Shown: positions 74 through 62,440, counted from the stretch's first letter. The stretch: DNA of 64,000 nt from Candidatus Marinacidobacterales bacterium (GCA_965237955.1 OZ250169.1:384001-448000), one strand, 5' to 3'. Program-made: numbers and translations. Notes: a model not told the origin generated them from the letters alone.

Positions 74-106
74 TATTTCAAAAAGGCCGAGTTTTGGCAC
101 AGGACG
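74..106 (-). mobile_element. Solo terminal repeat of rve-IS lineage A (end A)
   Basis: TATTTCAAAAAGGCCGAGTTTTGGCACAGGACG, the reverse complement of the end seen at 60964, which leads into a transposase N-terminus. Confidence 0.85.
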
Positions 107-410
107 GGGTCGAGTTCGTACTTGAACCGGACGAAGGCCGCATCACCGTCAATTACAGCGACGGGAAACAGCGCTTTTCGGCTAAATTGTTTCTCTCCGT
201 AACTGGATCGTGCCGCTACAGGATCTCCAATGGTGGGGCATACGAAGGTGAATATTGCCGGTGGCAAGTGCTGCGGCGAGCCTTCGAGCGTATCTTCTTT
301 GACTCCTTGCCTCCAGGTGTACGCGTCCCCGGCGATTACGGAGTCACGATCTAGTCCTCTGCATGGGCTCACCTAACTGGGCCAACCAATCAAGGAGGTT
401 ATTTTAAATC

Positions 411-710
411 ATGGTTACTGTAGGCTTCTCAAAAGCTCAAAGGATCATACTTGCTATTGGTGTCATGCTCTTTACTTCTAGCTTTACCTTCGCATTTAGT
501 CCTTATGACTACAGCCATATCGCCGCAGCCGTGATAGCTGTAGGAGCGGGTCTGATCTCAGCCGTAGCAGTTCCTCCAAAACGGGAGGTCGAGAGAATTT
601 ACTTGCCTCGACCTTGTAACCTATCTCGCCGCAAGTTTGAGAAAGCTTTGAAGAACCTTGATGTCTGTTCAGCTCATATCCTTGATACCCTCGACAATAA
701 GGGAGAATGA
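411..710 (+). CDS. Small hypothetical membrane protein
   Basis: 99-aa ORF with two hydrophobic segments; AGGAGG upstream. Confidence 0.55.
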   Translation: MVTVGFSKAQRIILAIGVMLFTSSFTFAFSPYDYSHIAAAVIAVGAGLISAVAVPPKREVERIYLPRPCNLSRRKFEKALKNLDVCSAHILDTLDNKGE

Positions 711-751
711 ACGTGGCCCATGAGGCAAGCGGCTCCGGTACGTGGATCTAA

Positions 752-1046
752 CCGCGTGAGAATAGGAGATGGATGACATGAAAAGCCCCAAGGAAATTCC
801 TTTGCGCTCAGACTGGATGTAACTGGTCGCTGCAGACGCTTTCCGAGCTCGGCCAGAGACCGCCGTTCGCCATCGGTCAGGCACAGCGACCCTGGGTCTG
901 AATTCGAAGAACTGGATTCTTGGCCACAAGATACTCGTTGCGCAGGAGCAACTCCTCATCCACGGACCCTGGCCCGGTCGCAAACACAGACGCTAAGCTA
1001 CTGATTCATGGTCTATTTCAAAAAGGCCGAGTTTTGGCACAGGACG
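752..1046 (-). repeat. 295-bp composite unit (unknown DNA + lineage C transposase piece + end A), copy 1
   Basis: Near-identical to 62146-62440; 834-970 matches about 9714-9851; 968-1046 is end A. Confidence 0.85.
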
Positions 1047-1105
1047 GGCTCGAGTCCGTTCGCCTTAGCGGTCTCGATGAGCGAATGCAGCCGGGTGCTC
1101 GCGTT

Positions 1106-1271
1106 GGTGCTTGCGCTATTTACTGTTGGTGATGTGTACGCATCCCTTTGCAAAAAAAGCGCTTACGCTCCATTTAGCGCGCAGCGAAGGTCGTGAGCGC
1201 TATTTTGGCTGTAATTTAATGCACCGTAAAGTCTTAGCGTCATTCCACCAACACTTAATGACGGAAGCACC
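1106..1271. mobile_element. MITE-like element D with 26-bp imperfect TIRs
   Basis: GGTGCTTGCGCTATTTACTGTTGGTG...CACCAACACTTAATGACGGAAGCACC; partial copies at about 15481, 20368, 27121, 27510 and 34692. Confidence 0.7.
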
Positions 1272-1829
1272 CTTTGCCCCGCAAGCCGGCCGCCGTTGAC
1301 CACGACCATCTCGATACTGCTGGCGAACGGTCAAGCATCGTCGATCCGGGTTGCGGCGGAGCCACGCGGCGCGGCGATCGTGCGTCGACTCGAGACCGAG
1401 CCGACGCACGCCGCCCACAGTTCGTCGGACGGAGTGTGGGCTCACTTGCTCGTAGCCCCGACCGGCTTGACCTTAGATTCGTTGTTCACGTTCGCGATAC
1501 GCAGTCTCGGCACCATCCAACCGCCCTCCGGCGCGAAATCGTAGATCACCAGCTCCGGGTGGTAGCTGTCGAACGACTGTCCAAAGAACACGCACGCCGC
1601 GTTGGACGCGCACGGTAGCACGTGCACTCGCCGAACACCGTGCTCGTCCCCCAACCTGTCCATCATCATTATTAGTCCGGGACTGGACTCCAGGCCCGGA
1701 GCGCCCTCGATCCCAATGCTTGAGAGCGTGGTCAGCGCGCGAGGGAAGATGCTGAGGACGAACTTCTCGGCGACCAGCCGAGTAACGCGAGCGACCAAGC
1801 TGACTCAGGCTGCCTCTCGCCACTCGTAT

Positions 1830-2008
1830 CGATGGTGCAGTCCACTGCCTTGATGAACTCGATGACCGCAGCGTTAAAGATGAAGTCGCGGTCGAAGATG
1901 AGATATCTCGGAGCGGTGTCGTAGGGAAACGCCTCGCGTAGTTGCTGAATAACCCAAGCAGACGTCGGGTGGAACGTGGCGTTGAAGTGAACGATGTGCC
2001 GACGACCG
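1830..2008 (-). pseudogene. rve transposase internal fragment
   Basis: RRHIVHFNATFHPTSAWVIQQLREAFPYDTAPRYLIFDRD; begins exactly at end A (2009). Confidence 0.8.
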
Positions 2009-2043
2009 CGTCCTGTGCCAAAATTCGGCCCTTTTGAAATAGA
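2009..2043 (+). mobile_element. Solo end A
   Basis: CGTCCTGTGCCAAAATTCGGCCCTTTTGAAATAGA. Confidence 0.85.
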
Positions 2044-2309
2044 GTCCTGAGCGCCAGCGCGGTGTCTTGCCTCCAGGTCGAAGATTGGAACTCTTTTGAC
2101 CGGAGAGGGGCAGACCGGAGAGGGGCAGAAAACCATTCGTGGGCTTCGAATGGAACCCCTCACGTGCTGCTCTGAGATTCCCCCTATCGATAGTTACCAC
2201 ATGGGAAAACGGCCCGAACAGCCCCAAATGGCCCGTTGGTGGCCTATTTTTTCCCGTTTCTGATGGTTTCCAGCCAAGAACCCGGATAGCTCCACTCGCC
2301 CTCGCTTGA

Positions 2310-3253
2310 GCCTGCCGACTGCGATAGCCGGAAAGGTGTTCCCGTCGACGCCACGTCGGTCGATGAGGCGTAAGATCCTTTAATGGTAGTGATTTACGGC
2401 CTGGACCCGCCGCCGGAGAGTTTACGACACGGCCCTCTTTCAGGCGCCAAGGAGGTTGAGGTTGCCGTCGAGAAAAGCGTATTGAAGCCAATTCGAATTC
2501 CGGCTCGAATGGCCACCCGTCCATGAGATGTGCGAGGACCGAGCACGTGAAGGCAGCCGTTAAATCACTGTAGAAAAAGAGGATAAAATGATGTGGACAC
2601 CACGGCTTCTCTGAGTATTCGCTCCATTGCCCCAACACGCGCATGGCGAAAAGGGCGATATGACTCGCAAAACTCGCAAAACTCCCCGTATGGGCCAGGA
2701 CGTAGGTTCCGACCTGTGCTTCGGGGTTTCCAGCCGAGACCGGATAGCTCCGGACTTCACCATCCGCCACCCAGTCTGGCCAATTGTGGCACTGCAGAGA
2801 CGGGTGAGATTTTCCGCGCGGTTGGCGGGGTTTTGCAGGATCAGGTGTCACCAGAGACGCGCTAGAAAGGCTGAACTGGCCTCATTTTCGGTTTTGGTCT
2901 CTAATCTCGATTTTCGAGTGCCACGTTTGCGCCAAAGGGGGGGAGTGGGTCGCTGACAGGGCCGTGCAGCGTCGGAAAAGAGGCCGCCCGAGGGGTCCAG
3001 AATCAAGGCCAGGGCTACTGTGGCGTAGCCGGCTAGCACGTTCTGGCCCAGGTGCGGCCCGTGCCTGGATCCAGGTCTCCGCCCGGGAGCGTGGCATCCC
3101 GTTGCTGGACGGTGTTTTCCCTGCGCGTACGGGGAACCCGAATCGCCGACATCACCTCCGACAAGCCCCAGATCTGGGGCTCGCCATGGGTCGATGACGA
3201 TCGAAACGGCCCGGCGCGCCAGTCTTGAGTTCGTTTGTGTTTTTGGACAGGAC
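2310..3253. repeat. About 0.95-kb non-coding duplicated block ending in a lineage B IS end, copy 1
   Basis: Homologous to 41402-41480 joined to 44409-45232 once IS21 is removed; ends in TTTTTGGACAGGACG. Confidence 0.8.
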
Positions 3254-3421
3254 GGGGTCGCCACTTGATCTGATACCGTCACCATGAAGTGGAGTTGCGC
3301 TGTTCCTTTTCCACAGGATTGGGTACGCATCCTGCTGCTTTCCCTTTTGGATAATGGGTGACGCCTTCGGCAATGCCGTTACCACTAAAGCAGACCTCGC
3401 TGCTCTCAAATCGCCGTACGG

Positions 3422-10680: not shown

Positions 10681-10819
10681 GAGCTCAACCTTATGCCTAG
10701 CTATGAACACAAAAAACTGATCGAACGCATATCTCAGCTTAACGAGTTATCAGAGGCAGTAAAGACCTCTTGAGCGTTCGAGCATGTCGATCTGTGCGCG
10801 CGATGTCACTTAGGCCACG

Positions 10820-11521
10820 TCAGGAGTCGCTCTGGATGAGCACCCGCACCATCTCGAGCTGGATGGGATCGTCGATGTGGAGCGATTTCTTCCCGCCAAA
10901 GACGACGGCGCGCACGTCCTCTCCCATACAGAAGTCGTTCCCACTCCAGTTCTCCAGCAACTTCCGCTTCCGGGCAAAAACGCCGCCGTCGAAGATGTGA
11001 GCCGGTGGAAGTTCCTGCCGCTGCAGAAACGACTCGTTGGTGTACTCATTGAATGGCCGCAATCGATCCCCTTCCAGCTTTTTCACCCAATAGGGATGCT
11101 CATGGGCGATAGGCTCCACGGACGCGGCTGAGTCAGCATCCGTCTCCAGAAGCTTGTCCACAACCCGGTCGATATCCTTTGCTTCGATGAAGGGCGACGT
11201 CGCCTGAATCGAGACCACGATGTCCGACGGGTAGCCGAACTCATCCATGGCGCGCATGGCGTGCTGCACCACGGGAACGAGACCCACCTCGTCCTCCGCG
11301 AGCTCGGCCGGGCGCATGAAAGGTGTTTCCGCACCCCACTTCCGCCCCACGGCCGCAATCTCTTCGTCTTCGGTGGTGAGAATGACCCGGTCGAGGGTTC
11401 TGGTGTTCTTCGCCGCCTCCACGATGAAGGACAACAAAGGCCGTCCATGTACGTCCGACAGGTTCTTGCGCGGGATCGATTTCGATCCACCCCGCGCGGG
11501 AATGACACCGAGTATTTTCAA
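10820..11521 (-). CDS. neuA: Acylneuraminate (nonulosonate) cytidylyltransferase, NeuA-like
   Basis: IPARGGSKSIPRKNL, IQATSPF, RQELP, SLHIDDP; TTG start at 11521. Confidence 0.88.
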   Translation of the reverse strand: MKILGVIPARGGSKSIPRKNLSDVHGRPLLSFIVEAAKNTRTLDRVILTTEDEEIAAVGRKWGAETPFMRPAELAEDEVGLVPVVQHAMRAMDEFGYPSDIVVSIQATSPFIEAKDIDRVVDKLLETDADSAASVEPIAHEHPYWVKKLEGDRLRPFNEYTNESFLQRQELPPAHIFDGGVFARKRKLLENWSGNDFCMGEDVRAVVFGGKKSLHIDDPIQLEMVRVLIQSDS

Positions 11522-12849
11522 ATTGATTCCCTGTGGAAGAAGTTCAGCGCATCGTAGAGACCCCGCTCGAAAACATTGGGCCTGCGTTCCCAGTGCAGGT
11601 TGAAGGAGATCATCGCATTGTTCCAATGCGAGCTTCCCCGCAGCAGCGCGGCGAGATAGTTCGCTTCGCATTTGCAAGTCAGAACCGGACGGTCTGCGGG
11701 CGGTGAGCCATCGATGCTGCGCTCGCGCAGATCGACGTACACCGGCCGCCAGCCGGGATCATCCAAGGCAATCGCGAGAATCCATTCACTTTTCAAACGG
11801 TGACGGTCCATCCTCTGGAACATGTGCTCTGTGGCCCGCTCGATTAGCGACTTCGTTTCGCTCTCCTCCACCGGAGGGTAGAGCGCCCGAGTATTTGGAA
11901 TCTCGGAGTAGAGCTCGTCCACAACCGAGCTGAGCGGCTTCGCTTCGAGATGAGCTTCATGGAGGTGAGCGCCCTCCGGCTCGAGTGTCAAAACGTCTCC
12001 CTCGGAGAGCGCGAACACCGGCAGTCCGGTATGAGCGCGGTACCGTCTCACTACTTCTTGCTTGTCCGCCCACCAGGACCCGGAGCACCACTTCGCGAAC
12101 GCCCGTGCCATGGGACCGCGCAATGCGAACTCGGAGGAGTAGGGCACCAACGCCTTGGGCTGCACCATCTCGATGAGAGCGCGGTTCACTGTCTCGCGCT
12201 TGGCCTCACGCTCTTCGGCGATGGAAAGTTTCTCCTCGTCGGTGAGGTTGTCGTAGCAGAGCGGATAATCCGATGCGGCGCCGTTGTACGAGAACGCCAG
12301 CAAGTCGCACCCTTTCATGTGCTCGATGGCTTCTCCGGCATCGGCCGGCTGATAGGGCACGTTGTCCGCCAGGAACACGAGCTTGAAGCCGTCCACTGTC
12401 ACGATGACGCCGGTATCGATCACGAGCGAGACCACGTCGGAGTCTTCGTACTGTTCGAGCTCCTGACCGTAGGCGTTCATCCGGGGGACGACTTCCAGGC
12501 TGAGGCCCGGCGCCACTTCCACGGACTGCTCGAGCGCGAGCATCGAGGGCTGGCGAAAGCCCATCTGCTTCAGCGTGCCTGCCATCAGATGATTCGGATA
12601 CACGTCCGGCACGAGCAGGTGCACGTCTCGCGATAGCTTGTCCAACGTAGCAACGTCGTAGTGATCTTCGTGGATGTGCGAGATGAAGCTATGGGTCACG
12701 CCGTCGAGCAGAGCCCCTTCATCCACGATGGCCGGATAGGGCATCCAGGCGCCGTCGAAAATACCCTTGCTGAGCCACGGGTCACAGACCAGTACATAGT
12801 CGTTCGACTCCACACGGACGAACCCGTTCGTCGGGTTCTGTATCTTCAT
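11518..12849 (-). CDS. MBL-fold metalloprotein, CMP-Neu5Ac hydroxylase-like without a Rieske domain
   Basis: DPWLSKGIFDGAW, SHIHEDHYD, HWNNA...RRPNVF...FFH; ATG at 12849 overlaps the upstream stop. Confidence 0.75.
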   Translation of the reverse strand: MKIQNPTNGFVRVESNDYVLVCDPWLSKGIFDGAWMPYPAIVDEGALLDGVTHSFISHIHEDHYDVATLDKLSRDVHLLVPDVYPNHLMAGTLKQMGFRQPSMLALEQSVEVAPGLSLEVVPRMNAYGQELEQYEDSDVVSLVIDTGVIVTVDGFKLVFLADNVPYQPADAGEAIEHMKGCDLLAFSYNGAASDYPLCYDNLTDEEKLSIAEEREAKRETVNRALIEMVQPKALVPYSSEFALRGPMARAFAKWCSGSWWADKQEVVRRYRAHTGLPVFALSEGDVLTLEPEGAHLHEAHLEAKPLSSVVDELYSEIPNTRALYPPVEESETKSLIERATEHMFQRMDRHRLKSEWILAIALDDPGWRPVYVDLRERSIDGSPPADRPVLTCKCEANYLAALLRGSSHWNNAMISFNLHWERRPNVFERGLYDALNFFHRESI

Positions 12850-14861
12850 TCCCTCGCTGCTCGTTCTTGTTTTTCTCCGGCGAGCCGCCGGATGGCCTTG
12901 AGGATGCGCTCGGTCGACCGACCATCCGCACCGAAAGCAAACTCCATGATATAGGCACGCCGCCGAGTCTCGAGCACCTCGGCAAACGCCTCGTCGAAAA
13001 GGAGTTTTTGGAGCGCCTCCTTGATGGATTCGCCGTGGGCCGCGCCGAGCGCCACGCCCCGTCTGACCAGAGCGCTCAGGTTGCTGGGAAGGTTCACCAC
13101 CAACACGGGCTTTCCCAGAACGAGCGATTCGGACGAAGCAAAGGAGTCTACCGTCACCAGGCCGTCCGAAGCAAAGAGAAACTCGAGAAGGTTTTCTTTG
13201 GCGCTGGAAAAACGCACGGCCCTGGCCCGCTCCTGTTTCACCACCTCTTCGTACGGAGCGACTAGCTCGGCCTGATGCGGTTTGACCAGCAAGCACACAC
13301 CCGGCGTGTCCTCCACGGCGCGCACCAGCTCGGTGAAGACCGGACCGACCGCGGAAAATCGAGAGGCCAGGACGAGCAGGTTGGTCCCCTCGTCGACACC
13401 GAGGCGCCGTCGCGTCGCCCGGCGATCGAAGCGCTTTCCCGCACTTACGAGAGCATCGAACTTTGGGCTTCCGGTAACGACGAGCTGCTCCGCCCGGTAG
13501 TGTCCCCGCTGCATCAGAATGTCCTTCGCCATGCTGCCGAAAACCGCGGTACGGGTCGGAATAGGAACACAGTCCCTGCCGTCCGCGGCCGGCCCGACTT
13601 CCTCCGCGCTGTGCTCGGCTCCGTACAGCCGCGGATAGAGAATGCCGTGCTGGACGGCAAAAGAAACAACACCCACTCTCGCTGCCGCAGCGATCGCCGC
13701 CCTTCCCAGACCGCTGTACTCGGCATAGAGAACCAGCACGTCGGGCCTCTCCCATGCCAGCGCAGCTTCGACTTCATGAAAAGAGCGAATGGCCCAGGGA
13801 AGCTGCAGCAGCATCGTATCTCGAAACGACGGCAGCGCCAGGGCTCCGAGTGGCACACCATGATGACTGAGCGCCCGGTCCAGGTCCGGCTGCGCGCGAA
13901 ACGCGCGCCACATACACCAGCACCGGAGGGACGCCGGGATGAGTCGTAGGGCCATCCCCAGTGTGGTGTAGTTGCGCGCGGGGGTGTAGGGGTGACCGGC
14001 ACTGTCGTCCAGCTCCAGAATCTCTTTCAGCACGCCGGTGGGACCGCGCTGCTTGAACGGCACGGTGGGACCGAAGGCCACCATCCCCACGGCATCACCG
14101 CCGGCCGCGAGCCGCAACGGCAGCTGGTCGAAGTACATATCGACGAGCTCGGTAGCTCCCGTCTCTTCGTTCTCCCGTTGCCGCCACATGGAGGCATGCG
14201 TGAGGAACAAGATCCGTCGACTGCTCGAGCTCGCCTCCGCCTGCTTCCGCTTTCGCGCGAAGACGTTCTTGAGGCCCGTTCCCAGCATCTTGAGCTGCGC
14301 GATCTTGAATCGTATCGACGTTCTGAGAAAGTTGGATGGCAGGCTGTTGAAACGACCGCGCAGCTCAACGTGGGTTAACCGCCGGCGAGCTGCAGCCGCC
14401 AGTACTCGGGCCGTCCCGAAGATGAACAGGCGCGAGGGCCTCTCCTGGTCGATCAAACGCGACAAGGCCTCGATGTCGCGCACAAATAGTCGCAAAGGTG
14501 TGTCGTGATATAAAAACAGCTCCGCCCACCACCAGAGAGCGAGACCTTGGTGCCGAAACTGATCTCGAAAGCTTCCTGCGGGGCCGAGAGGCTTGCGGCC
14601 AAACTCTTTGAGCCAGGCAATGACCGCATCGTCGATCTCTGCGCCGGCGGATTCGCCCAGAGCCGCCTCGAGCGGCGTGCTAGAGATACCTTGGCCAGTC
14701 AGATAGCCCGCCACATCCGGACTTCGGAAACGCTCCTGAACGATGGACGGGTGTTGCCAGGCGACGATTCGGGCTCCACTCTGAGCGAGCTTTCGAAGCT
14801 CGCTCACCTCGCCGGGCTTGAGGGAGGCACTGGCGACGAGCACCAGCGGCTCAGCCGGCAC
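12846..14861 (-). CDS. Surface polysaccharide biosynthesis protein, GT-B-like glycosyltransferase
   Basis: AVQHG, VTGSPKFD, LVKPHQAE, ESLVLGKPV motifs; coupled to neuA-like operon. Confidence 0.7.
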   Translation of the reverse strand: MPAEPLVLVASASLKPGEVSELRKLAQSGARIVAWQHPSIVQERFRSPDVAGYLTGQGISSTPLEAALGESAGAEIDDAVIAWLKEFGRKPLGPAGSFRDQFRHQGLALWWWAELFLYHDTPLRLFVRDIEALSRLIDQERPSRLFIFGTARVLAAAARRRLTHVELRGRFNSLPSNFLRTSIRFKIAQLKMLGTGLKNVFARKRKQAEASSSSRRILFLTHASMWRQRENEETGATELVDMYFDQLPLRLAAGGDAVGMVAFGPTVPFKQRGPTGVLKEILELDDSAGHPYTPARNYTTLGMALRLIPASLRCWCMWRAFRAQPDLDRALSHHGVPLGALALPSFRDTMLLQLPWAIRSFHEVEAALAWERPDVLVLYAEYSGLGRAAIAAAARVGVVSFAVQHGILYPRLYGAEHSAEEVGPAADGRDCVPIPTRTAVFGSMAKDILMQRGHYRAEQLVVTGSPKFDALVSAGKRFDRRATRRRLGVDEGTNLLVLASRFSAVGPVFTELVRAVEDTPGVCLLVKPHQAELVAPYEEVVKQERARAVRFSSAKENLLEFLFASDGLVTVDSFASSESLVLGKPVLVVNLPSNLSALVRRGVALGAAHGESIKEALQKLLFDEAFAEVLETRRRAYIMEFAFGADGRSTERILKAIRRLAGEKQERAARE

Positions 14862-14937
14862 GGCTGCCCCGCACGCTCATGCTCAACCTGTCTTCGAGCT
14901 TTCCATCGGACCAATCCGGACCGCCACTTGTGAGCCG

Positions 14938-15443
14938 TACCTCGACGGTGAACAGGTCTGTCGCAGCGATGGCGCCCCAATGAGCCTTGATGAAGGTGCT
15001 CCACGACATGCTCTTGCCCCGCTCCGGCGCAGGAGCGATACCGTGGTCGGCGAGGATCCTCTTGATAGTGTTGCGTCCGAGTTCATGTCCTAGGTTCTTG
15101 AGTGCGCCTCGCAGGCGCGTATATCCCCACGTCGGGTTCTCCTGCGCCACGCGCACAATGAGCTCACGGATGTCCTTCGCCGTCGGAGATCGGCCTGGGC
15201 TCCGGTTCTTGCTGCCATCGTACTTGGCTGCGACGAGGCAGCGGTACCAACGCAGAAGCGTAGCGGGTGTGGCAACGGACGCAATCTGGGCCAGCGCCTC
15301 GCGGCCCAAAGCCTGGGCCTTGACGGCGAGCCTGCGCCGCTCGTCGTCCGAGAGCCTGAGACGCTTGCCCCGAAGCCCGGCTCGGAGCACACGGTTCTCC
15401 TCTTGCTGGTAGTCGATCACATCCTGCTGCTGGCGGTTGACCC
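14938..15443 (-). pseudogene. rve transposase N-terminal fragment (lineage A)
   Basis: VNRQQQDVIDY.QEENRVLR...ENPTWGYTRLRGAL...ATDLFTVEV, then breaks off. Confidence 0.85.
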
Positions 15444-15480
15444 CGTCCTGTGCCAACACTCGGCCCTTTTGAAAGACCAT
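15444..15480 (+). mobile_element. Solo end A abutting its own transposase gene
   Basis: CGTCCTGTGCCAACACTCGGCCCTTTTGAAA next to GGGTCAACC. Confidence 0.8.
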
Positions 15481-15600
15481 GGCTGTAATTTAATGCACCG
15501 TAAAGTCTTAGCGTCATTTTACCAACACTTAATGGCGGAAGCACCCATGAGGTCTGTGTGAGCAGCAAGGGCTGCCCGATCGAACAACGGCTGCCTGACC

Positions 15601-15761
15601 AACAGTAGGAATTGCACATGGTACGTCATGATGGATCCGAAGATAACACCCTCGAGCCAGACGATTGTAAAGCCCACAGCCCTTGGCACCGTCGCAAAAC
15701 ACAGACGCTAAGCTGCTGATTTATCGGCTATTTCAAGAGGGCCGAGTTTTGGCACAGGACG
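15601..15761 (-). mobile_element. End A plus transposase leader, diverged
   Basis: Reverse complement aligns to about 60964-61125. Confidence 0.8.
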
Positions 15762-15795
15762 GGGTCTCCTCGGTATCATCGCCACCATAGTTCTC

Positions 15796-17400
15796 GTGGC
15801 CATGGTTCTCGTACGCCAATCCCGCGCATTCGACAGTGCCGCCGGCACGGTGCGCGACGAGCTCAGGATGGGCCGCGAGGAAGCGCAGCAGACCGCCGCC
15901 CGGCTCCGCGAGGAACTGGTTGCCGGCCTCAAAGCCAGCAACGAGACGCTTGTCCACTCGCTGAAGAGCATGGGCGCTCTTCAGCAGACCCAGCTCACCG
16001 GCATGACCACGCAGTTGAAGGATTTGACCGACTCGAGCCAGGCATCGCTCGAGCGCATCCGCGCGGCCGCCGAGTCTCAGGCCAAAGCACTCCAGGAGAG
16101 CAACGAAAAGAAGCTCTCGGAGATCCGCGCCAGCCTCGATGAGCGACTCGGCGCAATGACAACCCAGCTGAAAGAGACGGCCGATGCAAACCACGCCACG
16201 CTGGAGCAGCTGCGCGGCCTGCTTGATGCGCGTGTCAAGGAACTGCAGCAAGGCAACGAGAAGAAGCTCTCCGAGATTCGGACAAGCCTGGATGAGAAGC
16301 TCGGCACGATGACAGCGCAGCTCAAGGAGATGACCGACTCCAACCACGCCGGCATGCGTCAGGTGCGCGATCTGCTAGATACACGCGTCAAGGAGTTGCA
16401 GGAGGGCAACGAAAGAAAGCTCGGTGAAATGCGCAAGACCGTCGATGAGAAACTCCACGACACACTTGAAAAGCGGCTTGGCGAATCCTTCAAGTTGGTC
16501 AGCGAGCGCCTCGAATCAGTCCATAAGGGCCTCGGTGAAATGCAGACCCTGGCAAGCGGCGTGGGCGACCTGAAAAGAGTCCTGAGCAACGTCAAGGCGC
16601 GCGGCACATGGGGTGAAGTCCAACTCGGCGCAATTCTTGCGCAGTTCCTCGCTCCGGGTCAGTATGAAAAGAATGTTCGTCCCGCACCCGACTCAACCGA
16701 GACCGTCGAATACGCCGTGCGCCTGCCAGGCCCGCAGGACGATCCAACCTCCTGTGTCTGGCTTCCCATCGACTCCAAGTTCCCGCAGGAAGACTATCTG
16801 CGCTTACAGGATGCTGCAGAAGCGGCCGACGCCGATGCAACGCTTAGAGCCATAGACGCACTCTCGCGTACGGTCAGAGCGGCGGCGAAGGCCATCAACG
16901 AGAAGTACTTGAAACCACCAGCCACGACCGACTTTGGGATCATGTTCCTTGCCACTGAAGGTCTTTACGCCGAAGTCCTCCGCCAGCCCGATCTCGTTGA
17001 TGAGCTCCAGCAACGCTATCGCGTTATAGTCGCCGGACCGACGACGCTGGCGGCGATCCTCACCAGCTTGCAGATGGGTTTTCAGACCCTGGCCATCGAG
17101 CAGCGCGCCGCGCAGGTGTGGAGAATCCTGGGCGCCGTGAGAACCGAGTTCGACAAGTTCGGCGGCGTTCTCGATAAAGTCAGGCGCCAGCTCAACAGCG
17201 CCAGCCGCACGATCGAGCAGACGGGCGTTCGCAGCCGCGCGATGGAGCGAAAGCTTCGTACCGTCGAGCGGATGCCCGACGGCGAGGCCGCACGAATTCT
17301 CGAGCTCCCGGCGCTCACCGAAGAGATTGAAGCCGAGGACGCGGAACTCTCCGCCGAACTCGAACCACTCGACGATGAGGACGGCGCGGAGTCGACGTAG
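15796..17400 (+). CDS. rmuC: DNA recombination protein RmuC family (extreme 5' end probably clipped)
   Basis: NVKARGTWGEVQL, LPIDSKFPQEDY, TTDFGIMFLATEGLYAEV, GPTTLAA; frame is open back to end A. Confidence 0.92.
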   Translation: MAMVLVRQSRAFDSAAGTVRDELRMGREEAQQTAARLREELVAGLKASNETLVHSLKSMGALQQTQLTGMTTQLKDLTDSSQASLERIRAAAESQAKALQESNEKKLSEIRASLDERLGAMTTQLKETADANHATLEQLRGLLDARVKELQQGNEKKLSEIRTSLDEKLGTMTAQLKEMTDSNHAGMRQVRDLLDTRVKELQEGNERKLGEMRKTVDEKLHDTLEKRLGESFKLVSERLESVHKGLGEMQTLASGVGDLKRVLSNVKARGTWGEVQLGAILAQFLAPGQYEKNVRPAPDSTETVEYAVRLPGPQDDPTSCVWLPIDSKFPQEDYLRLQDAAEAADADATLRAIDALSRTVRAAAKAINEKYLKPPATTDFGIMFLATEGLYAEVLRQPDLVDELQQRYRVIVAGPTTLAAILTSLQMGFQTLAIEQRAAQVWRILGAVRTEFDKFGGVLDKVRRQLNSASRTIEQTGVRSRAMERKLRTVERMPDGEAARILELPALTEEIEAEDAELSAELEPLDDEDGAEST

Positions 17401-20750: not shown

Positions 20751-20787
20751 CCATGCGCGGACAGAACGAAGCCGGAACCTCGACCAC

Positions 20788-21252: not shown

Positions 21253-21280
21253 AAACAGCTTCCAGGCACCGTGCCGACCG

Positions 21281-24741: not shown

Positions 24742-24760
24742 CAACGTGTCCTCCCGTCCG

Positions 24761-25201: not shown

Positions 25202-25204
25202 GAT

Positions 25205-53020: not shown

Positions 53021-54105
53021 GGCGTTGTTGCACGGCCCGGAGCAAATCGCTGACCTCCCTGTGCCGGTTGCAGAGTCACCCGGCGCAGTACGTATCGGGC
53101 ATCCCGAGCGCAGCCATCTTGTTGAGTATCTCGCACCCAATTCGGTGTTCAACTCGTTGCCTCTCCAACGTTCGAGCCCGCATCTCCGGCCCGATGATCG
53201 CCTTGTAACGATAGACCGCGTTCTCCACCATGCTTCGCTTGGTGTAGCCTGAGAGCTTGTACCATTCACGTCGGCCGTGTCTTTCGATTGCATGAATATG
53301 GCGATCGCGCTCCTGCATGGCGGTGTTCGAATTCTGACTGAGCGTCGCGTTTCGTTGCGGCGGAATCACCACGCGCGTCCTTCGTCCAGGACTGTGCGCT
53401 TCGATGGCTTCGTAGACCGCTTCCTTGTCGTATGCACTGTCCGCCGCCACCGACACTAGAGGTGCTTGAATCTGTGTTAGCAAAGCGGGGACTCGCGTTG
53501 CGTCGCGAGCTCGTGACGCCGTCAGTTCGGACGCAACAATGTTCCCTGTCTCGCGATCAACGGCGATGTGCAACTTGCGCCATGCGCGCTGCTTTGGCGG
53601 TTTGCGAGCGTTTCCAACATGAATCCTCAAGCCCGTGCTATCGATCATCAGGTGGATGGGTTGAGTGCTCGCGGCTTTCGGAATCCGCAGCTTCTTGCGG
53701 AGCAACCTCGAGCGCCGAGACAACGTCGAGTAGTCCGGGATCTCGATACCGAGCCCGAGAAGCGAGGCGATCGAGTGCAAGAAGCCTTCGGTTTGGCGGT
53801 AGGCGAGCTTGTACACCATCCGGACAACCAGGCCCGTTTCAATCGCCATGTCTGAATAGACCTGTTGACCGCCAGGCTTACCGGTCTTGTCGGCCTTCCA
53901 GTTCGCGATTGCCTCCTCGTCAAACCAGACTGTCAAATCGCCCCGGCGGCGCAGCCCTTCGTTGTATTCCGCCCAGTTGCGAACGTGGTACTTCTTCTGC
54001 TTCGCGTGCTTGTACTGGCAGCGCTTGGGATACTTCATGCTCGAACATACCTCGGCCACCACCATAGGCGGATTTCGCTCTCAGCCAGAGCGGTGCAACA
54101 ACGCC
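53021..54105 (-). mobile_element. IS5-family element, copy 2
   Basis: Near-identical to 38865-39949; abuts a half CRISPR repeat. Confidence 0.92.
53076..54038 (-). CDS. IS5 transposase
   Basis: Same motifs as copy 1. Confidence 0.92.
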   Translation of the reverse strand: MKYPKRCQYKHAKQKKYHVRNWAEYNEGLRRRGDLTVWFDEEAIANWKADKTGKPGGQQVYSDMAIETGLVVRMVYKLAYRQTEGFLHSIASLLGLGIEIPDYSTLSRRSRLLRKKLRIPKAASTQPIHLMIDSTGLRIHVGNARKPPKQRAWRKLHIAVDRETGNIVASELTASRARDATRVPALLTQIQAPLVSVAADSAYDKEAVYEAIEAHSPGRRTRVVIPPQRNATLSQNSNTAMQERDRHIHAIERHGRREWYKLSGYTKRSMVENAVYRYKAIIGPEMRARTLERQRVEHRIGCEILNKMAALGMPDTYCAG

Positions 54106-56943
54106 GGTTGATGCCCCGGCCTTCGTTGAGCGACTGACCTCATGATGATAGAAATCGAGACCAGGATCAAGTGTCGCCGGGGTTGATGCCCCGGCCTTCG
54201 TTGAGCGCATTGGTCCTTCGCCCAAAGCTCCAATAGTTTCGCGTGTCGCCGGGGTTGATGCCCCGGCCTTCGTTGAGCGGCGGTCGCAACGATCAAGTGG
54301 TGCGTGCCATGGCGCTGGTGTCGCCGGGGTTGATGCCCCGGCCTTCGTTGAGCGGGGATCTACTCCGAGCGCTGGGCCTGGCACCGCGGCATGTGTCGCC
54401 GGGGTTGATGCCCCGGCCTTCGTTGAGCGCGTTACTAGTAGTCAAGAGAATAAGGGCGGAAATCGAGTGTCGCCGGGGTTGATGCCCCGGCCTTCGTTGA
54501 GCGTGCTGCCATCTGTACCTGCGAGCAAGTAGTATGACCACGTGTCGCCGGGGTTGATGCCCCGGCCTTCGTTGAGCGCCGCGCTCGCCTTCGGCCAGCC
54601 GCAGATCCCCGAGTGTCGCCGGGGTTGATGCCCCGGCCTTCGTTGAGCGGGTAAAGTACCGACACTCGCTCTTGGGTACGGGGGAGCCGTGTCGCCGGGG
54701 TTGATGCCCCGGCCTTCGTTGAGCGGAGGCGTTCAGCGACAAGCTGATCGCGCTGGAGCGAGGTGTCGCCGGGGTTGATGCCCCGGCCTTCGTTGAGCGT
54801 CGCAGTAGCGCAACTGGACGTACGGCGCGGGCGGATGTGTCGCCGGGGTTGATGCCCCGGCCTTCGTTGAGCGTGTCCCAGTTCGAGGAGCCTAAGGGCG
54901 GCGATCTCGCGGGTGTCGCCGGGGTTGATGCCCCGGCCTTCGTTGAGCGAGGCACGCCAGAAGAGAAGGCCGAGCACGAGTAGTGGGTGTCGCCGGGGTT
55001 GATGCCCCGGCCTTCGTTGAGCGCGGCCACGCGCCCATCTGAGCGACGCGGTCGATCCGCGCGTGTCGCCGGGGTTGATGCCCCGGCCTTCGTTGAGCGT
55101 CCTATTCCTCTCGCCGGACCGACCATTTGGGCAAACGTGTCGCCGGGGTTGATGCCCCGGCCTTCGTTGAGCGAGGGTCGGTCGCGATTGCGATCCAGGC
55201 GGGTCTCGAGGTGTCGCCGGGGTTGATGCCCCGGCCTTCGTTGAGCGTCTGCCGCGGTCGGGCAACTGCACGACTAAAACAGGAGTGTCGCCGGGGTTGA
55301 TGCCCCGGCCTTCGTTGAGCGTGGGCTGCCCGGGCGGTCGGCATTCCCGTCGTCGGACTGGTGTCGCCGGGGTTGATGCCCCGGCCTTCGTTGAGCGCAT
55401 CTCTGCTACTGGCGGGGGCGCGGGGGACGGCGTCGCGTGTCGCCGGGGTTGATGCCCCGGCCTTCGTTGAGCGGTTATATCGGCGAGGGAAAGATCGTCG
55501 AGCTCGTCGTGTCGCCGGGGTTGATGCCCCGGCCTTCGTTGAGCGCTGTTCGAGTCGCAGAGCGGCGATTACTACGTCGGCGTGTGTCGCCGGGGTTGAT
55601 GCCCCGGCCTTCGTTGAGCGGACTACAGCGATCGCGAGCTCGGCAGATCGATGCTGGTGTCGCCGGGGTTGATGCCCCGGCCTTCGTTGAGCGAAGCTGG
55701 CGCCCATCCGGTGCCGGAAAAGGAGTAGAATGTGTCGCCGGGGTTGATGCCCCGGCCTTCGTTGAGCGTATCTGCGGCCAGGGACGTTCGCTGCGTCAGA
55801 ACGGCGGTGTCGCCGGGGTTGATGCCCCGGCCTTCGTTGAGCGGACGTGCAGGTCGGGCTTGAGTTCATCGAGTTCCCGTGTCGCCGGGGTTGATGCCCC
55901 GGCCTTCGTTGAGCGCCGCCGTCGTGCACTCCCCCGCAGACTCCCCACGGGCCGTGTCGCCGGGGTTGATGCCCCGGCCTTCGTTGAGCGGACGGAACGG
56001 GCACCATGATCGACCTCGCCAATCGAGGTGTCGCCGGGGTTGATGCCCCGGCCTTCGTTGAGCGTACCGAACCGGCAACTTCACGCTGTTCGACGATCAC
56101 GTGTGTCGCCGGGGTTGATGCCCCGGCCTTCGTTGAGCGCAGTCCTGCACGGTGGGGCTTGGGTTCGCCGCGCGGTGTCGCCGGGGTTGATGCCCCGGCC
56201 TTCGTTGAGCGGAATTCGTGCGTACTTGATCATGCGCACGCGCGAGTGTCGCCGGGGTTGATGCCCCGGCCTTCGTTGAGCGGCGTCCTTCACCTTCTCG
56301 TCGAGGCGGAGCAGCTCGAGTGTCGCCGGGGTTGATGCCCCGGCCTTCGTTGAGCGTGTTCGCCGGAGTGTGAGCGCGAGGCGCGGAAGGCCCGTGTCGC
56401 CGGGGTTGATGCCCCGGCCTTCGTTGAGCGCGAAAGAAGTTTGCCGAAAGTGCGGTGGGCGTGGCGTGTGTCGCCGGGGTTGATGCCCCGGCCTTCGTTG
56501 AGCGCGCCGCGTCGCTACCATTTCTGACAGTGAGATCACGAAGTGTCGCCGGGGTTGATGCCCCGGCCTTCGTTGAGCGCTCGAAGTACTCGGCGAGCCC
56601 GGATTTGAGGACGAGTGTCGCCGGGGTTGATGCCCCGGCCTTCGTTGAGCGCTCTTCACCACGAACGCGATGAACTGCACTATGACCGTGTCGCCGGGGT
56701 TGATGCCCCGGCCTTCGTTGAGCGCAGACATGGTTGAGGGCGGTGGCGTCGGCGAGGCCTGTGTCGCCGGGGTTGATGCCCCGGCCTTCGTTGAGCGCAG
56801 ACATGGTTGAGGGCGGTGGCGTCGGCGAGGCCTGTGTCGCCGGGGTTGATGCCCCGGCCTTCGTTGAGCGTCATGCCGAACACCCGCACATTCCCTCCTC
56901 GGCCTCGTGTCGCCGGGGTTGATGCCCCGGCCTTCGTTGAGCG
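54106..56943 (+). CRISPR. CRISPR array 3, type I-G (I-U)-like 37-bp repeat, about 39 repeats
   Basis: GTGTCGCCGGGGTTGATGCCCCGGCCTTCGTTGAGCG; I counted 38 full repeats plus one 5'-truncated; spacers about 34-40 bp; subtype inferred from repeat resemblance. Confidence 0.97.
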
Positions 56944-56956
56944 TCCTCGGGATCGC

Positions 56957-57139
56957 TGCCCCGCGCCAAAACTCGGCCTTTTTGAAATAGACCATAAATC
57001 GGCAGCTTAGTGTCTGTGTTTGCGACCGGGCCAAGGGCCGTGGGCTTTACAATTGTCTGGCCCGAGGGTGTTATCTTCAGAACCATGATGACGTACCACG
57101 TGCAATTCTTACTGCTCGTTCTGGCTGGCTGGGTCAACC
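56957..57139 (+). mobile_element. End A with transposase start, mutated tip
   Basis: GCCCCGCGCCAAAACTCGGCC...MMTYHVQFLLLVLAGWVN. Confidence 0.82.
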
Positions 57140-57275
57140 CGTCTGGTCAAAATACTCGAACGCCCAGCGGGTCAGCGGTTTGCACCTTCCCAAAGGCCGC
57201 TTGAATCCGCCATCGCGGTCGGATACGTATTCTCAAGTTCAGCGGAAGGAGTCGCGATGGACTGGAAGACCATAC
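57140..57275 (+). mobile_element. Lineage C left end with transposase start
   Basis: CGTCTGGTCAAAATACTC...ATGGACTGGAAGACC (MDWKT). Confidence 0.82.
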
Positions 57276-57455
57276 TGGCCTTCGTGAGCATCACCAGCGA
57301 TATATTTGGGTCCAACTTCTACGATTTCTTCTACGACTGGGAAGTGTCCTGGCAGTAGTTGACGGAGGCGTTGGGTCGCAGCTACTCCGAACGATTCTTC
57401 CGCAAGCTGTTGAAGGGGCAAGGCCACCCGCCCTGGCGGCTGGTCACCGACAAGC

Positions 57456-57572
57456 GGCGTTGTTGCACGGCCCGGAGCAAATGGCTGACCTCCCTGTGCC
57501 GGTCGCAGAGTCACCCGGCGCAGCTGCTGATTCATGGTCTATTTCAAAAAGGCCGAGTTTTGGCACAGGACG
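57456..57572. mobile_element. IS5 end fused to end A
   Basis: GGCGTTGTTGCACGGCCC...CCGGCGCAG joined to CTGCTGATTCATGG...GGCACAGGACG. Confidence 0.8.
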
Positions 57573-57653: not shown

Positions 57654-57719
57654 CGTCGTGTCCGATAATACGAACGGAGCCCAAAAGCTCGAATCCTAGA
57701 GGTGTTCTCGGACACGACG
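57654..57719. mobile_element. 66-bp minimal lineage B element
   Basis: CGTCGTGTCCGATAA...TTCTCGGACACGACG; interior resembles 29372-29427. Confidence 0.7.
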
Positions 57720-57750
57720 AGTCTGGACTCCTTTTTTTGAGCTTGTTCGC

Positions 57751-59064
57751 CTACTTGAAGGAGGTGGCCGCGCGCCTGCCAAAGTGCTTCTGGTAAAGGA
57801 AGGAGACAAACATCAAAACCAGTCCTAGCACGAGGAACGATAGGATGCGATAACCCCGTTCCAAAAAGGATATATCAATCAGGAACGCCTTCAGCACAAC
57901 CACACCAATGAGAGCCAGCCCCTGCCGGCGCAAGGCCGCGGAACCACGCTGCACTCCCAACACAATGTGTACGGATGAGTAAAGAATCCACAACAGCGAG
58001 AGTGCCAGTTGTTGGGATAGCCGCGGCTCAATGATAGTCGTTTCCACCCGGCCAAATGCCTCCCAGATTTCCATGGAAAGGGCCGAGAGGATTAACACAT
58101 TTGCAGCAAGACCGACAGCTTTGAAGATGCGCTCTTCGTAGCCCGAAAGTGCACCCTCACCTTCATGGTGTTCCCTTGCCAGAAAGAAGGCTACAGCGAA
58201 ACAGGCCGCCGCAACCGCAAAGGTGGCAAAACGAGGATTGGAAAGGAAGCGGTCAGCTTGAATCGGCAGGGCCCACAGTCGAATTGCCACCAGGACGAAA
58301 AGCGAAAGTCCGAACCATCGCAGCAGATAATGTCTGATGCGTAGTCCGGTCCACACCAGTACGGTTCCTTCAATCGCCCACGCCATCGTGACCCATTTAC
58401 CGTCGAACTGGGTGAGTACAGCGAGGGTTATCAGCGTGAGCCCCAGTCCCGTGTAGAGCAATGCCGTCGGAGAAGTCGTCCCCCTCTCATCTTGTGCGGC
58501 CAACCAGGCCACACTCAAGTGGATCGCCACCAACACCAACAGCCACAAAGTAAGAGACCCTCGGTAATGCTCGTAGAGCATGGCGTTAAGTGCCGCCAGG
58601 TACCAGGTCACGTTTGCCAGCACGACGACCATCTGTGCGGCACGCAATTTCGGTCCCCGACGCGCTTGCAAAAGTGGAATGACTCCGAACTCGGTGAAGA
58701 AAGCGGTCGCAAAGAAGAAAGTCAGAAGAAGTTTTTCCGAGGTGTAGTATTGGTCGTACCAGGTGGTGAAATAACCGATTGTCCAGACCAGGCAGACAAT
58801 TTCCAGAGCGCGCCAGGTGCGCCACCGCGACAGCACCAGCAGGCCCGCGTTGAGCACTGCCAGATAGCTGAACAACGTACGCTGTGAGTCTTCTCCAGTA
58901 CTCAACAACGCGGGAGTCAGAAAGCCACCCAGCATCGCCAGAAATGCGACCGACTGCGAGTTACGCCGAATGGCCACCGTAAGCATTCCCGCAGTAACCG
59001 CCAACATTGCGATAAACGCCACGCCTTGCTCCGCCAGCAGTGGTGCAACGAACCCACCGTGCAC
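57751..59064 (-). pseudogene. DUF2339-like multi-pass membrane protein, 5'-truncated
   Basis: GGFLTPALLSTG, YLAVLNAG, WAIEG, KAFLIDI...RILSF..LG. Confidence 0.78.
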
Positions 59065-59261
59065 GGCGGTAAATCGACACGGCCATCGGCGTGAGGTTCA
59101 GACTGTCGCGCTGGTATTGTCAAGTTTTCCACGGCCTGACGGCCACCCCGAATGAATGAAACGCGGCAGTCTCTGGAGGTGGCACCGGCTCAACACAACG
59201 CCTGAGGGAGCTCGGTTTTGACGTCACTGCCCCCAAACGCTACACCCTGAGTTTCTTATTA

Positions 59262-59937: not shown

Positions 59938-60043
59938 GTTGAGTAGGCCGGGGAGTCACACCCCCAGCCTCTCGCAGAACGGTACGTGAACCTCTCGACT
60001 CATACCGCTCCAATCAGGCGAACACACCTGTCATCCCGAGGTG
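59938..60043 (-). ncRNA. Group II intron 3' remnant (domains V-VI)
   Basis: GAGCGGTATGAGTCGAGAGGTTCACGTACCGTTC (D5) + TGCGAGAGGCTGGGGGTGTGACTCCCCGGCCTACTCAAC. Confidence 0.85.
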
Positions 60044-60230
60044 CCCTCTACACTAATTTCAAGGAGCGGATTGTCTCAAGGATGTTGGCACAGAGGGTCA
60101 CAACACGGTTCTCCTCCTGCAGATACTCAAGAATCTTCTGCTGCTCCTAGTTCAACCAACCAGCCAGGAACGAAACCAGGAAGATTCGTGGCGGCACGGC
60201 ACACGAGCGGGAGCATCCAGACTTGGGAAC

Positions 60231-60523
60231 CTACTCCTGAAGAAGCCGGATCACGTATCCCAAGATGCCAGAGCCGAGTCCGATTCCAGCTTTCACGATA
60301 TGGGATTCGTTGCGTCTAAAGAAGTTTGCATGTTCGTGGCGCTTCTTTAAGAAGAGTAGATTGCGGCGAATCTTAATCCGCCCGCTGGCGAAAATATAGA
60401 CGCCAAGCGCGGCCAAGAAGAGGAGCCACGCCGCAGCGTTATTGTGGTAGCGCGACAAAACAAAACCGTACATTATCAAGACTGGCAGGGCGAAACAGGC
60501 GGTCCGCACTAAAAACCAGAGCG
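60231..60523 (-). pseudogene. Membrane protein 3' fragment, clipped at end A
   Basis: Hydrophobic frame starting exactly at the junction. Confidence 0.5.
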
Positions 60524-60750
60524 CGTCCTGTGCCAAAACTCGGCCCTTTTGAAATAGCCCATAAATCAGCAGTTTAGCGTCTGTGTTTGCGACCGGGCCA
60601 AGGGCCGTAGGCTTTACGGTCGTCTGGACCGAAGGTGTTATCTTCAGCTCCATCATAATGTACCACGTGCAATTCCTACTGCTCGTTCTAGCTGGCTGAG
60701 GCAACCGCCATCAGCAGGATATGATCGACTACCTCCGAAAGGAGAACTGT
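60524..60750 (+). mobile_element. End A with degenerate transposase start
   Basis: Aligns with about 60964-61185. Confidence 0.85.
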
Positions 60751-60779
60751 GATGCAAATCAACGCTGCATCGAGTTTTT

Positions 60780-60963
60780 GCGGAGCACCGGTACGGGAAG
60801 GTGAATGAACACAACGGCCTGGTGCCGCGGGATCACTGGATCGAAGAATGGGAGCGCCAGTCCGTGATCGACTACTTCGACTGCCACCCACTGGACGGGT
60901 ATCGCCGACTCACGTTCATGATGCTGGACGAAGACGTGGTGGCAGTTAGCCCCTCGACGACGT
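60780..60963 (+). pseudogene. IS3-like transposase fragment
   Basis: EHNGLVPRDHW...GYRRLTFMMLDEDVVAVSPST, clipped at end A. Confidence 0.7.
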
Positions 60964-61315
60964 CGTCCTGTGCCAAAACTCGGCCCTTTTGAAATAGACC
61001 ATAAATCAGCAGCTTAGTGTCTGTGTTTGCGACCGGGCCAAGGGCCGTAGGCTGTACAATCGTCTGGCCGAGGGTGTTATCTTCAGTTCCATGATGACGT
61101 ACCACGTGCAATTTCTACTGCTCGTTCTGGCTGGGTCAACCGCCAGCAGCAGGATGTGATCGACTACCTGCAAGAGGAGAACCGTGTGCTCCGAGCCAGG
61201 CTTCGGGGCAAGCGTCTCAGGCTCTCTGACGACGATCGGCGCAGGCTCGCCGTCAAGGCCCAGGCTTTGGGCCGCGAGGCGCTGGCCCAGATTGCGTCCG
61301 TTGCCACACCCTCTA
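60964..61315 (+). mobile_element. Longest end A copy with transposase N-terminus
   Basis: TIR, leader, MMTYHVQF (frameshift) VNRQQQDVIDYLQEENRVLR...VATP. Confidence 0.88.
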
Positions 61316-61490
61316 CGCTTGTGCGCTACAGCCATGAGAGCGACGTCCTGCGAACTCGTCTTCGACCCGGTGGAAATCCTGCACGCTGTCGCCGCCGGGC
61401 GACCGACGCCTACTCGGCACGTCACGCCAGAACGCTAAGCATCGGGTTGCGAATCTGAGGGACCGGACGTCATACTTAAAGGGCACCCGC

Positions 61491-62153
61491 ATGAATGTCA
61501 CCAAGCTCGACCAACTCCTCCAGTACGCTCTTGTGGTAGCCGCTCAAGCCCGGCACGGCGTAACCCTTACACAGCTAGTGAAATACGCCTACTTGGGAGA
61601 CCTTGAGTTCGCAAGATGCCACGAAGGGCAGACGTACACCGAGACAGAATGGAAGTTCTTACACTTTGGACCTTGGGCAGCGAGCGTCCAAGATCGCGTG
61701 CCAGATTCAATGGACGCGATCGGTGCTCGCGCGGACGAGTTTGAGGTTGAGGACGGTGGACACGGGGTTTCCTACTCCCTGGACGGCCAGTTCGACGATT
61801 CCCTCCTGACAAGATTCGAGCGCGAGCTCCCCGTAGAGATCGCACGGACTATCAAGTACGCTGTTCACAAATATGTCCATAATGCCAATTCACTGCTGCA
61901 CTTCGTCTACGCAACCGAGCCAATTCTGAACGCCGCGCCTGGCGAGGTCCTCGAGTTTTGCACGGCGCGCCCGCCCGAAACGCCGTCGTCCCAAGAGGCG
62001 CTGACGGCTTCACCCCCCATGAGTAGGAAAGCGCTCCGAGAACGGCGCGCGAAGTTTGCGGAAGTCCGCGAGGAGGCACGGCATCGCATGCACGAATATC
62101 TCGAGCGTCGCCATGCTCTTCAGAAGCAGGCGGCGGTGACGCCGCCCGCGTGA
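61491..62153 (+). CDS. Panacea/DUF4065 (SocA-like) antitoxin-domain protein, probably 3'-clipped
   Basis: LTQLVKYAYLGDL...GQTYTETEWKFLHFGPW; stop lies inside the duplicated unit. Confidence 0.7.
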   Translation: MNVTKLDQLLQYALVVAAQARHGVTLTQLVKYAYLGDLEFARCHEGQTYTETEWKFLHFGPWAASVQDRVPDSMDAIGARADEFEVEDGGHGVSYSLDGQFDDSLLTRFERELPVEIARTIKYAVHKYVHNANSLLHFVYATEPILNAAPGEVLEFCTARPPETPSSQEALTASPPMSRKALRERRAKFAEVREEARHRMHEYLERRHALQKQAAVTPPA

Positions 62154-62440
62154 GAATAGGAGATGGATGACATGAACAGCCCCAAGGAAATTCCTTTGCG
62201 CTCAGACTGGATGTAACTGGTCGCTGCAGACGCTTTCCGAGCTCGGCCAGAGACCGCCGTTCGCCATCGGTCAGGCACAGCGACCCTGGGTCTGAATTCG
62301 AAGAACTGGATTCTTGGCCACAAGATACTCGTTGCGCAGGAGCAACTCCTCATCCACGGACCCTGGCCCGGTCGCAAACACAGACGCTAAGCTACTGATT
62401 CATGGTCTATTTCAAAAAGGCCGAGTTTTGGCACAGGACG
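62146..62440 (-). repeat. 295-bp composite unit, copy 2
   Basis: Near-identical to 752-1046. Confidence 0.85.

Follow-up and report, generated by a model that had tools for sequence, protein, structure and literature searches.

One-ended transposition in the IS91/ISCR insertion sequences (IS) depends on an HUH (Y2) transposase and is recognised by a fixed tip, a variable inner extent, a short target motif and the lack of a target-site duplication (TSD). Here we analyse 64,000 nucleotides of DNA from a Candidatus Marinacidobacterales bacterium (the window, positions 384001-448000 of genome G000, a single contig of 8,134,597 bp), in which pieces of unrelated genes are separated by copies of a short sequence, end A, that belongs to an IS with a DDE transposase, which we call IS-A. 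As described in PMC9333248, the first step of IS30 and IS911 transposition is a one-ended single-strand transfer that is resolved by the host. IS481 elements are reported to duplicate 2-15 bp of target, mostly 6 (PMC10045372), and IS481 and IS5 copies without a TSD have been noted at rearrangement junctions (PMC11708052). IS26 builds IS-interspersed mosaics without TSDs beside existing copies (PMC4196232), and IS1549/IS1634 elements carry direct repeats of 8-514 bp, a feature described in PMC2266710 as lacking any proposed mechanism.

A first-pass annotation had seen in the window a cassette-like array of captured DNA, stitched together by solo copies of one IS end. We find that end A is no orphan but the terminal inverted repeat (TIR, about 87 bp) of a 1,428-bp IS of the DDE (rve) type whose family is unclassified. 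The explanation to which we lean, with modest assurance, is that independent single-end strand transfers at the motif GACCC|NST, together with host end-joining and recombination, build the mosaic. This reading is based on the absence of clean insertions, a one-sided motif without stagger, an 88-bp duplication, TSD-less low-copy relatives, microhomology at inner breaks and cargo shared across genera.

The element behind end A

A 22-mer of end A has 16 matches in the window with at most 3 mismatches, where chance would give 0.01, and three further tips, one of 16 bp at 31625(-), one of 10 bp at 27109(+) and one with four changes at 56957(+), bring the total to 19, as first counted. In the whole genome the 22-mer occurs in 344 exact and 488 near copies; A tips number about 500 and complete IS-A copies 22, of which 18 have an intact open reading frame (ORF), at 93-100% identity. 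The nearest complete copy starts 590 bp beyond the window end, and the window itself contains a two-ended derivative at 15444-15761, so that the statement that no complete A element exists has to be given up. The outer tip is indeed constant and the inner extent does vary, but the limits of 10 to about 350 bp proposed for the latter are too narrow, since inner extents reach full length genome-wide.

The ends of IS-A read CGTCC..GGACG, the CG terminus belonging to the element itself, as seen from empty sites. Its transposase is a single ORF of 371 codons counted from GTG; the true length is probably about 354 codons, from the ATG where homologs begin. HTH and rve_3 domains are present, with D193, D259 and E294 invariant, which agrees with the earlier proposal of an rve-family IS as the driver. 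The best NCBIfam match is the IS481 model, below cut-off like the others (IS481 NF033577, 99.7 against 224; IS3 NF033516, 81.5 against 160; IS630 NF033545, 48.5 against 100), and the transposase of the B-type sister element likewise stays below the NF033577 cut-off (104.2 against 224). A structure model of moderate quality, built with an alignment (mean predicted local distance difference test, pLDDT, 55), suggests a fold matching TnsB, IstA, Mos1 and retroviral integrases; a PDB sequence search gave a single weak match. IS-A is probably a new IS family, and no description of it, or of the zones treated below, was found in openly accessible papers, ISfinder, subscription papers and supplements lying outside that search.

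The family is large. With a protein query that had 17 extra residues before the likely ATG and lacked the last 16 residues (family matches stop before the missing part), all 7,999 of the 7,999 scored candidates matched, and so did 104 plasmid records. Members occur in Streptomyces, in Leptospira and on rhizobial plasmids, and thousands of homologs bear no label beyond 'InsO' or 'integrase core domain'. This very large unclassified transposase group is thereby given ends, a target motif and a behaviour. The Streptomyces member looked at ends in TGTG. Related rve elements in our genome provide the sister ends B (CGTCG/CTGTCC) and T (TGTG), and TGT is also found at positions 6-8 of tip A. Derivatives of IS-A include miniature inverted-repeat transposable elements (MITEs) of 317 and 395 bp and a passenger of about 3 kb. 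This A-ended passenger, with a large serine recombinase of about 560 amino acids (aa) and a small upstream ORF, is found in the zones in about 25 copies, full or partial (for example G000 870870-874200 and 7827020-7830300, locus L004; partial at window 39951-41015), and it could add rearrangements of its own.

Joints, zones and inner breaks

Clean insertions were looked for by following the uninterrupted second copy of a flank past the joint and comparing this continuation with the partner flank. None of 155 informative sides (137 two-ended units, from G000 and 88 loci) rejoins its partner flank within -30 to +38 bp, G000 alone giving 0/83, and none of the 184 neighbouring tip pairs that face inward showed a TSD of 4-6,000 bp. 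Of 39 two-ended copies in relatives, 36 have no direct repeat and the remaining three show just 2-3 bp of C, while distant low-copy acidobacterial members of the family keep CGT tips and CC-rich flanks, again with no TSD. The absence of TSDs at A tips, noted at the outset, is thus confirmed. IS21 retains its TSD at 8/15 copies in zones and 9/18 in quiet regions, and an IS with an 8-bp TSD retains it in zones at 4/4; the window copies of IS21 (3680-6622; 7-bp TSD) and IS3 (18530-19792; 3-bp TSD) also keep their duplications inside the mosaic.

The target consensus, GACCC|NST, is one-sided (G49 A67 C61 C88 C76 | C43 G66 T60; at flank position -1, C 74% and G 15%), and both ends of complete IS-A copies abut the same ACCC-type flank. 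For A and B ends the palindromic-stagger correlation was 0.32 and 0.28 at best, whereas three control IS gave 0.77 at 9 bp, 0.52 at 6 bp and 0.92 at 8 bp. No partner-site peak appeared at staggers of 8-109 in 701 flanks; scores are elevated at 6-7, where there is overlap with the motif itself. Discrete TSD lengths of the IS481EU/IS1202 type (about 15 and 25 bp) gave no peak. Empty-site continuations rule out a 2-bp TSD made of CG, and likewise a blunt insertion at a CCC|GGG palindrome.

One long duplication was found. A B-type composite with membrane-protein cargo (genome 2545797-2548639), located behind a core gene pair (Omp85 and SurA-like), has on either side a repeat of 88 bp that corresponds to the 3' end of the SurA-like gene. 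This repeat occurs only twice in the genome, the two copies being 96.6% identical. Two other candidates, of 937 and 87 bp, lie within multi-copy elements.

The tips are strongly clustered: 891 of 928 A, B and T tips (including a few false singles from the loose B pattern) lie in 14 zones that together make up 1.76 of 8.13 Mb, or 22% of the chromosome, unlike other IS families, which are dispersed. Solo ends are therefore not scattered at the same density throughout the genome, and the window, taken at first for a special array, is one slice of the 1.76 Mb of such zones. Multi-copy DNA amounts to 53% in zones and 14% elsewhere. Scarcity of targets was rejected as the cause of the clustering, the motif being as common outside (1.64 vs 1.86 per kb). 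The exact tip is present in 10 of 31 genomes searched, from two families, and eight relatives have 27-426 copies each.

Nine pairs of tips stand back to back with spacers of 7-55 bp (e.g. G000 326432/326457, 7838746/7838772 and 7854559/7854587), and several of these spacers recur elsewhere as ordinary sequence, like circle or dimer junctions with variable spacing. Genes for tRNA-Ser, tRNA-Ala and tRNA-Ser (G000 126836, 923088 and 2008447) lie 0.5-6 kb from zone edges, and tRNA-linked islands may have been the origin of some zones.

The 500 A tips comprise 89 in complete units, 10 in long passengers and 104 that run up to another recognised IS tip; the 297 that end elsewhere are an upper estimate, as the master IS set is incomplete. 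At 73 of 190 tip-less junctions examined, those with both parents readable, microhomology averaged 2.3 nt against 0.39, and at least 3 nt were shared in 23/73 where about one is expected. Ku is encoded in 28/31 genomes, hence is not specific to the tip-rich ones, and LigD is present.

On the single-end reading, the IS-A transposase would likely join one end at a time to the one-sided motif, and each joining event would likely leave a deletion, a rearrangement or a long duplication, not a clean insertion. Ku and LigD end-joining would be the likely producer of the tip-less inner breaks. Events that delete would survive only in dispensable DNA, so that selection would be the likely reason why the family is confined to self-enlarging zones; a long duplication in core DNA would do no harm, yet recombination could revert it. 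H-NS-type capture of transposition into foreign DNA (PMC11335895) might be an alternative cause of the clustering.

Several observations weigh against single-end joining. An IS5/IS903-like element of 1,085 bp (window 38865-39949 and 53021-54105) has a TSD at 0/49 complete copies and 122/122 of its ends in zones, which means that TSD loss and confinement alone require no unusual chemistry; this is the strongest caution against over-reading TSD loss. The motif holds an AC-NNN-GT half-palindrome that fits a 1-bp stagger with biased survival, and TGTG-type ends correlate at 0 bp (r=0.57) and 3 bp (0.52). The 88-bp case is the only long duplication, its copies differ at 3/88 positions, and Campbell-type import of DNA from a related strain could account for it. 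An apparent 869-bp TSD around the composite 1110991-1125796 lies within a 31-copy IS whose outer TSDs mismatch, so its halves come from different copies. Target deletion at the same locus was not above chance among 42 units informative on both sides, two of which mapped repeatedly to one element, and in the one case checked (L043) the TSDs of the host IS were mismatched.

An ordinary concerted DDE element with a stagger of about 1 bp could be responsible, its insertions erased by adjacent deletions and by recombination among some 500 ends in a graveyard of the IS903 or IS26 kind, with the flank bias reflecting survival of unreactive ACCC junctions. The IS903-like result keeps this account alive, as does the complementarity of positions -4/+3 and -3/+2, and missing TSDs are described as usually due to adjacent deletion and IS-IS recombination (PMC11708052). 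We nevertheless regard this main rival as unlikely, if deserving of serious attention, because the IS903-like element retains a symmetric 9-bp target logo while A and B have none, C and G are so unequal at position -1, TSDs are missing in low-copy distant relatives too, and the 88-bp duplication is left unexplained.

A third account gives the leading part to the host: community DNA would recombine at shared IS copies and its free end be joined illegitimately, the tips being passengers of donor junctions. Homology-facilitated illegitimate recombination is the concept behind it. The inner breaks away from recognised tips and their microhomology speak for it, as do a 450-bp RmuC piece that has two tip-less junctions in genome G012 and the presence of ComEC and DprA-family genes. 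An IEE-like primase domain (PF22548), VirB4 and VirD4 were searched for in G000 and none was found. Of the DprA-family matches (G000 3155859, 2800989 and 2621343), the best falls within a zone and those in quiet regions are partial, so that competence may be incomplete. Host action of this kind explains neither the one-sided motif nor why the same cargo is cut by A tips at differing sites; as a substitute for single-end joining it seems improbable to us, and it is more a partner of that explanation.

The window mosaic and its shared cargo

Of the window, 15.7 kb has no second copy in the genome; the remainder matches DNA of low or high copy number, for the most part located in other zones. The main features are as follows (window coordinates).

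73..106 (-): A tip, 34 bp of the IS-A TIR
752..1046 (-): A tip (87-bp TIR) with a fused B-type transposase piece, a 99.7% copy of 62146-62440
1442-1798: gene fragment with a SAVED (CBASS-type sensor) domain, between tips
2009..3254: inward pair A(+2009)...B(-3254), scrambled element fragments inside
10780..14939 (-): sugar-nucleotide cargo (cytidylyltransferase, epimerase-like); at 14939 it meets an IS-A fragment interior, with no tip
14940..15443 (-): IS-A transposase fragment, cut in turn by the tip at 15444
15444..15761: complete 318-bp non-autonomous IS-A derivative (MITE), an A tip at each end, no TSD
15762..17638 (+): RmuC cargo; the outward tips on its two sides are an A tip (15761) and a sister tip of the TGTG type (17639)
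17663..17785 (-): A tip, 123 bp, recombinase-passenger variant; cuts the ThiF 5' end
20780..21280 (+): CRISPR array, spacer cut after 28 bp by tip 21281
21281..21841: inward A pair (56-bp and 35-bp ends) flanking unrelated DNA
21842..24291 (+): cargo with LTXXQ and a histidine kinase (cut at 24291), outward tips on both sides
24292..24414: 123-bp A...B mini-unit
24415..27094 (-): carbamoyltransferase/SxtJ-family cargo
27109..27118 (+): 10-bp A tip remnant
28940..28960 (+): 21-bp A tip, with a sister tip of the TGTG type abutting it at 28961
29372..30719 (-): sister IS of the B type, complete (1,348 bp); its 371-codon ORF at 29533-30648 encodes an rve_3/HTH transposase
31610..31625 (-): 16-bp A tip
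31626..32424 (+): GT2 cargo with outward tips on both sides, truncated at its 3' end (32424)
32425..32769: inward A pair, 345 bp
45212..45232 (-): B tip
54096..56956 (+): long CRISPR array, spacer cut after 13 bp by the degenerate tip 56957
56957..57572: degenerate A tip (+56957)...A tip (-57572)
57654..57719: 66-bp B...B mini-unit
57720..59110 (-): DUF2339 cargo
60524..60751 (+): A tip retaining 228 bp of IS-A
60964..62440: inward-facing A tips spanning 1,477 bp (364 bp of IS-A, a unique ORF at 61491-62153, 87-bp TIR)
62708..62728 (+): B tip

The tips do cut through cargo, as first described: the histidine kinase at 24291, GT2 at 32424, ThiF at 17786 and two CRISPR spacers, after 28 and 13 bp. 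An intact 577-aa copy of the kinase lies in another zone (genome about 563100-564840). The three CRISPR arrays (20415-20753, 20780-21252 and 54096-56943) have differing repeats, the first two with duplicated spacers, and no cas genes occur among the 133 ORFs scanned of the 262 in the window with at least 80 aa. A tRNA-Glu called by ARAGORN at about 37050 (G000 421050) and again at G000 2884722, within a duplicated CotH-kinase ORF, is probably spurious.

That the mosaic holds captured DNA is supported by its cargo. Segment 10780-14930, searched in 55 genomes with five candidates scored per genome, is 99-100% identical in G013, G015, G021 and G023, all tip-rich and belonging to other genera, in two cases also to another family; its left truncations are nested (384, 566, 1114 and 1967), two directly at an IS-A tip. 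The core Omp85-SurA locus, for comparison, reaches 65-76% identity inside the family, and the search for it in other families gave nothing; of the four cargo-sharing genomes, two have it at 66-69% identity and the other two gave no match. Segment 24500-27100 is 99% identical in G295 and partly so in G008; 21850-23900 is 100% identical in G008, and the kinase cargo is also copied at 100% in another zone of our genome. The DUF2339 segment (57720-59110) is 95% identical in four tip-rich relatives, and the 450 bp of RmuC in G012 are 100% identical. Cargo of 99-100% identity that is cut at different sites in different genera is therefore DNA shared in recent times and cut separately in each genome. 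Near-identical IS copies in co-occurring genera (those shared between relatives have 95-97% amino-acid identity) would act as recombination anchors that import foreign fragments into zones, the likely route of transfer. The carbamoyltransferase and SxtJ-family genes (24761-27094) have counterparts in 21/55 genomes of the order, mostly at 70-74%, and are likely a generic O-carbamoylation module.

An assembly or binning chimera, with several organisms joined at IS repeats, would also give foreign cargo beside IS ends. The genomes are metagenome-assembled genomes (MAGs), G000 with 6.2% contamination, and in short-read contigs from four studies several cargo pieces extend past window junctions without a tip, with differing depths for neighbouring pieces; no contig formally bridges a tip, the one at 15740-17112 having only 22 letters on the tip side. 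The junctions, however, fall at exact tips with a strong motif or at microhomologies, not at random points in repeats, the eight separately assembled tip-rich relatives have shared cargo cut differently in each, and the IS21 and IS3 of the window retain their TSDs, so that we consider such an artefact very improbable.

Cargo that often sits between two outward tips and is common to several genera might finally suggest a domesticated, integron-like DNA-sampling system with ordered cassettes. We give this hardly any credence, and nothing points to an adaptive cassette system: neighbouring tips show no polarity (++163, --148, +-201, -+195), there is no recurring site and no integrase, cargo is mostly broken and cut mid-gene (long-ORF cover is 0.66 in zones and 0.97 in quiet regions), no tyrosine recombinase was seen in the 133 of 262 window ORFs scanned, and the element is a selfish multi-copy IS. 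The cassette-like character first ascribed to the window is therefore not upheld.

Comparison with known systems

The IS481/IS1202 group is close to IS-A in its single ORF, HTH and rve DDE transposase, length of 1.4 kb and TIRs. Our element differs in scoring below the NF033577 cut-off, in having CG..CG ends instead of TG..CA (TGT..ACA) and in lacking a TSD. It is below the NF033545 cut-off of IS630 as well, and its flanks are of the ACCC type, not a TA duplication. Compared with IS3, IS30 and IS911, the nine back-to-back tips resemble junctions with relaxed spacing; yet the single-end step of IS30 aims at a partner inverted repeat with a constant spacing of 2 bp, and a concerted insertion that makes a TSD comes next. 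IS-A, unlike IS3, has one ORF with no OrfA/OrfB frameshift, lacks the TG..CA ends and the 3-5-bp TSD of that family, and has a sub-cut-off score and no concerted product found.

Should single-end joining be correct, IS-A would be a DDE element whose normal product is rearrangement. It would also offer testable models for the long variable target duplications described in PMC2266710 and for the TSD-less IS reported at deletion and duplication junctions in PMC11708052. The 88-bp duplication would be a repeat of the IS1549/IS1634 sort, although the transposase is of a different family (no IS1634 match) and long duplications are rare here (one case). In a wider and more tentative form, which we put forward as possible and not as established, the enzyme never integrates concertedly but joins each end on its own at GACCC|NST, as the capture-and-delete engine of a new and widespread CG-ended family; together with host end-joining it would build the megabase zones, which would form a DNA pool across genera and families of marine acidobacteria. 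The very recent inter-genus gene flow, confined to IS-built zones (22% of the chromosome), is relevant to estimates of MAG contamination and to pangenome work.

In its products IS-A recalls other systems. Like IS26 and IS903 it is found in TSD-less IS mosaics, and the IS903-like element does the same in the same zones, but IS-A copies are not in direct orientation, are mostly truncated and have a one-sided flank motif. With IS91/ISCR it has in common the fixed tip, the variable inner extent, the missing TSD and the short one-sided target motif, while its transposase has a DDE/RNase-H fold, not HUH, and its two ends are near-identical inverted repeats with no distinct ori and ter. From integrons and CALIN, with their polarised cassettes, attC sites and IntI, it is set apart by the lack of polarity and of a tyrosine recombinase in the 133/262 window ORFs scanned, with no attC search made. 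IS-A thus resembles DDE elements of the IS3/IS481 clan in its working, and the mosaics built by IS26 or IS91 in its products.

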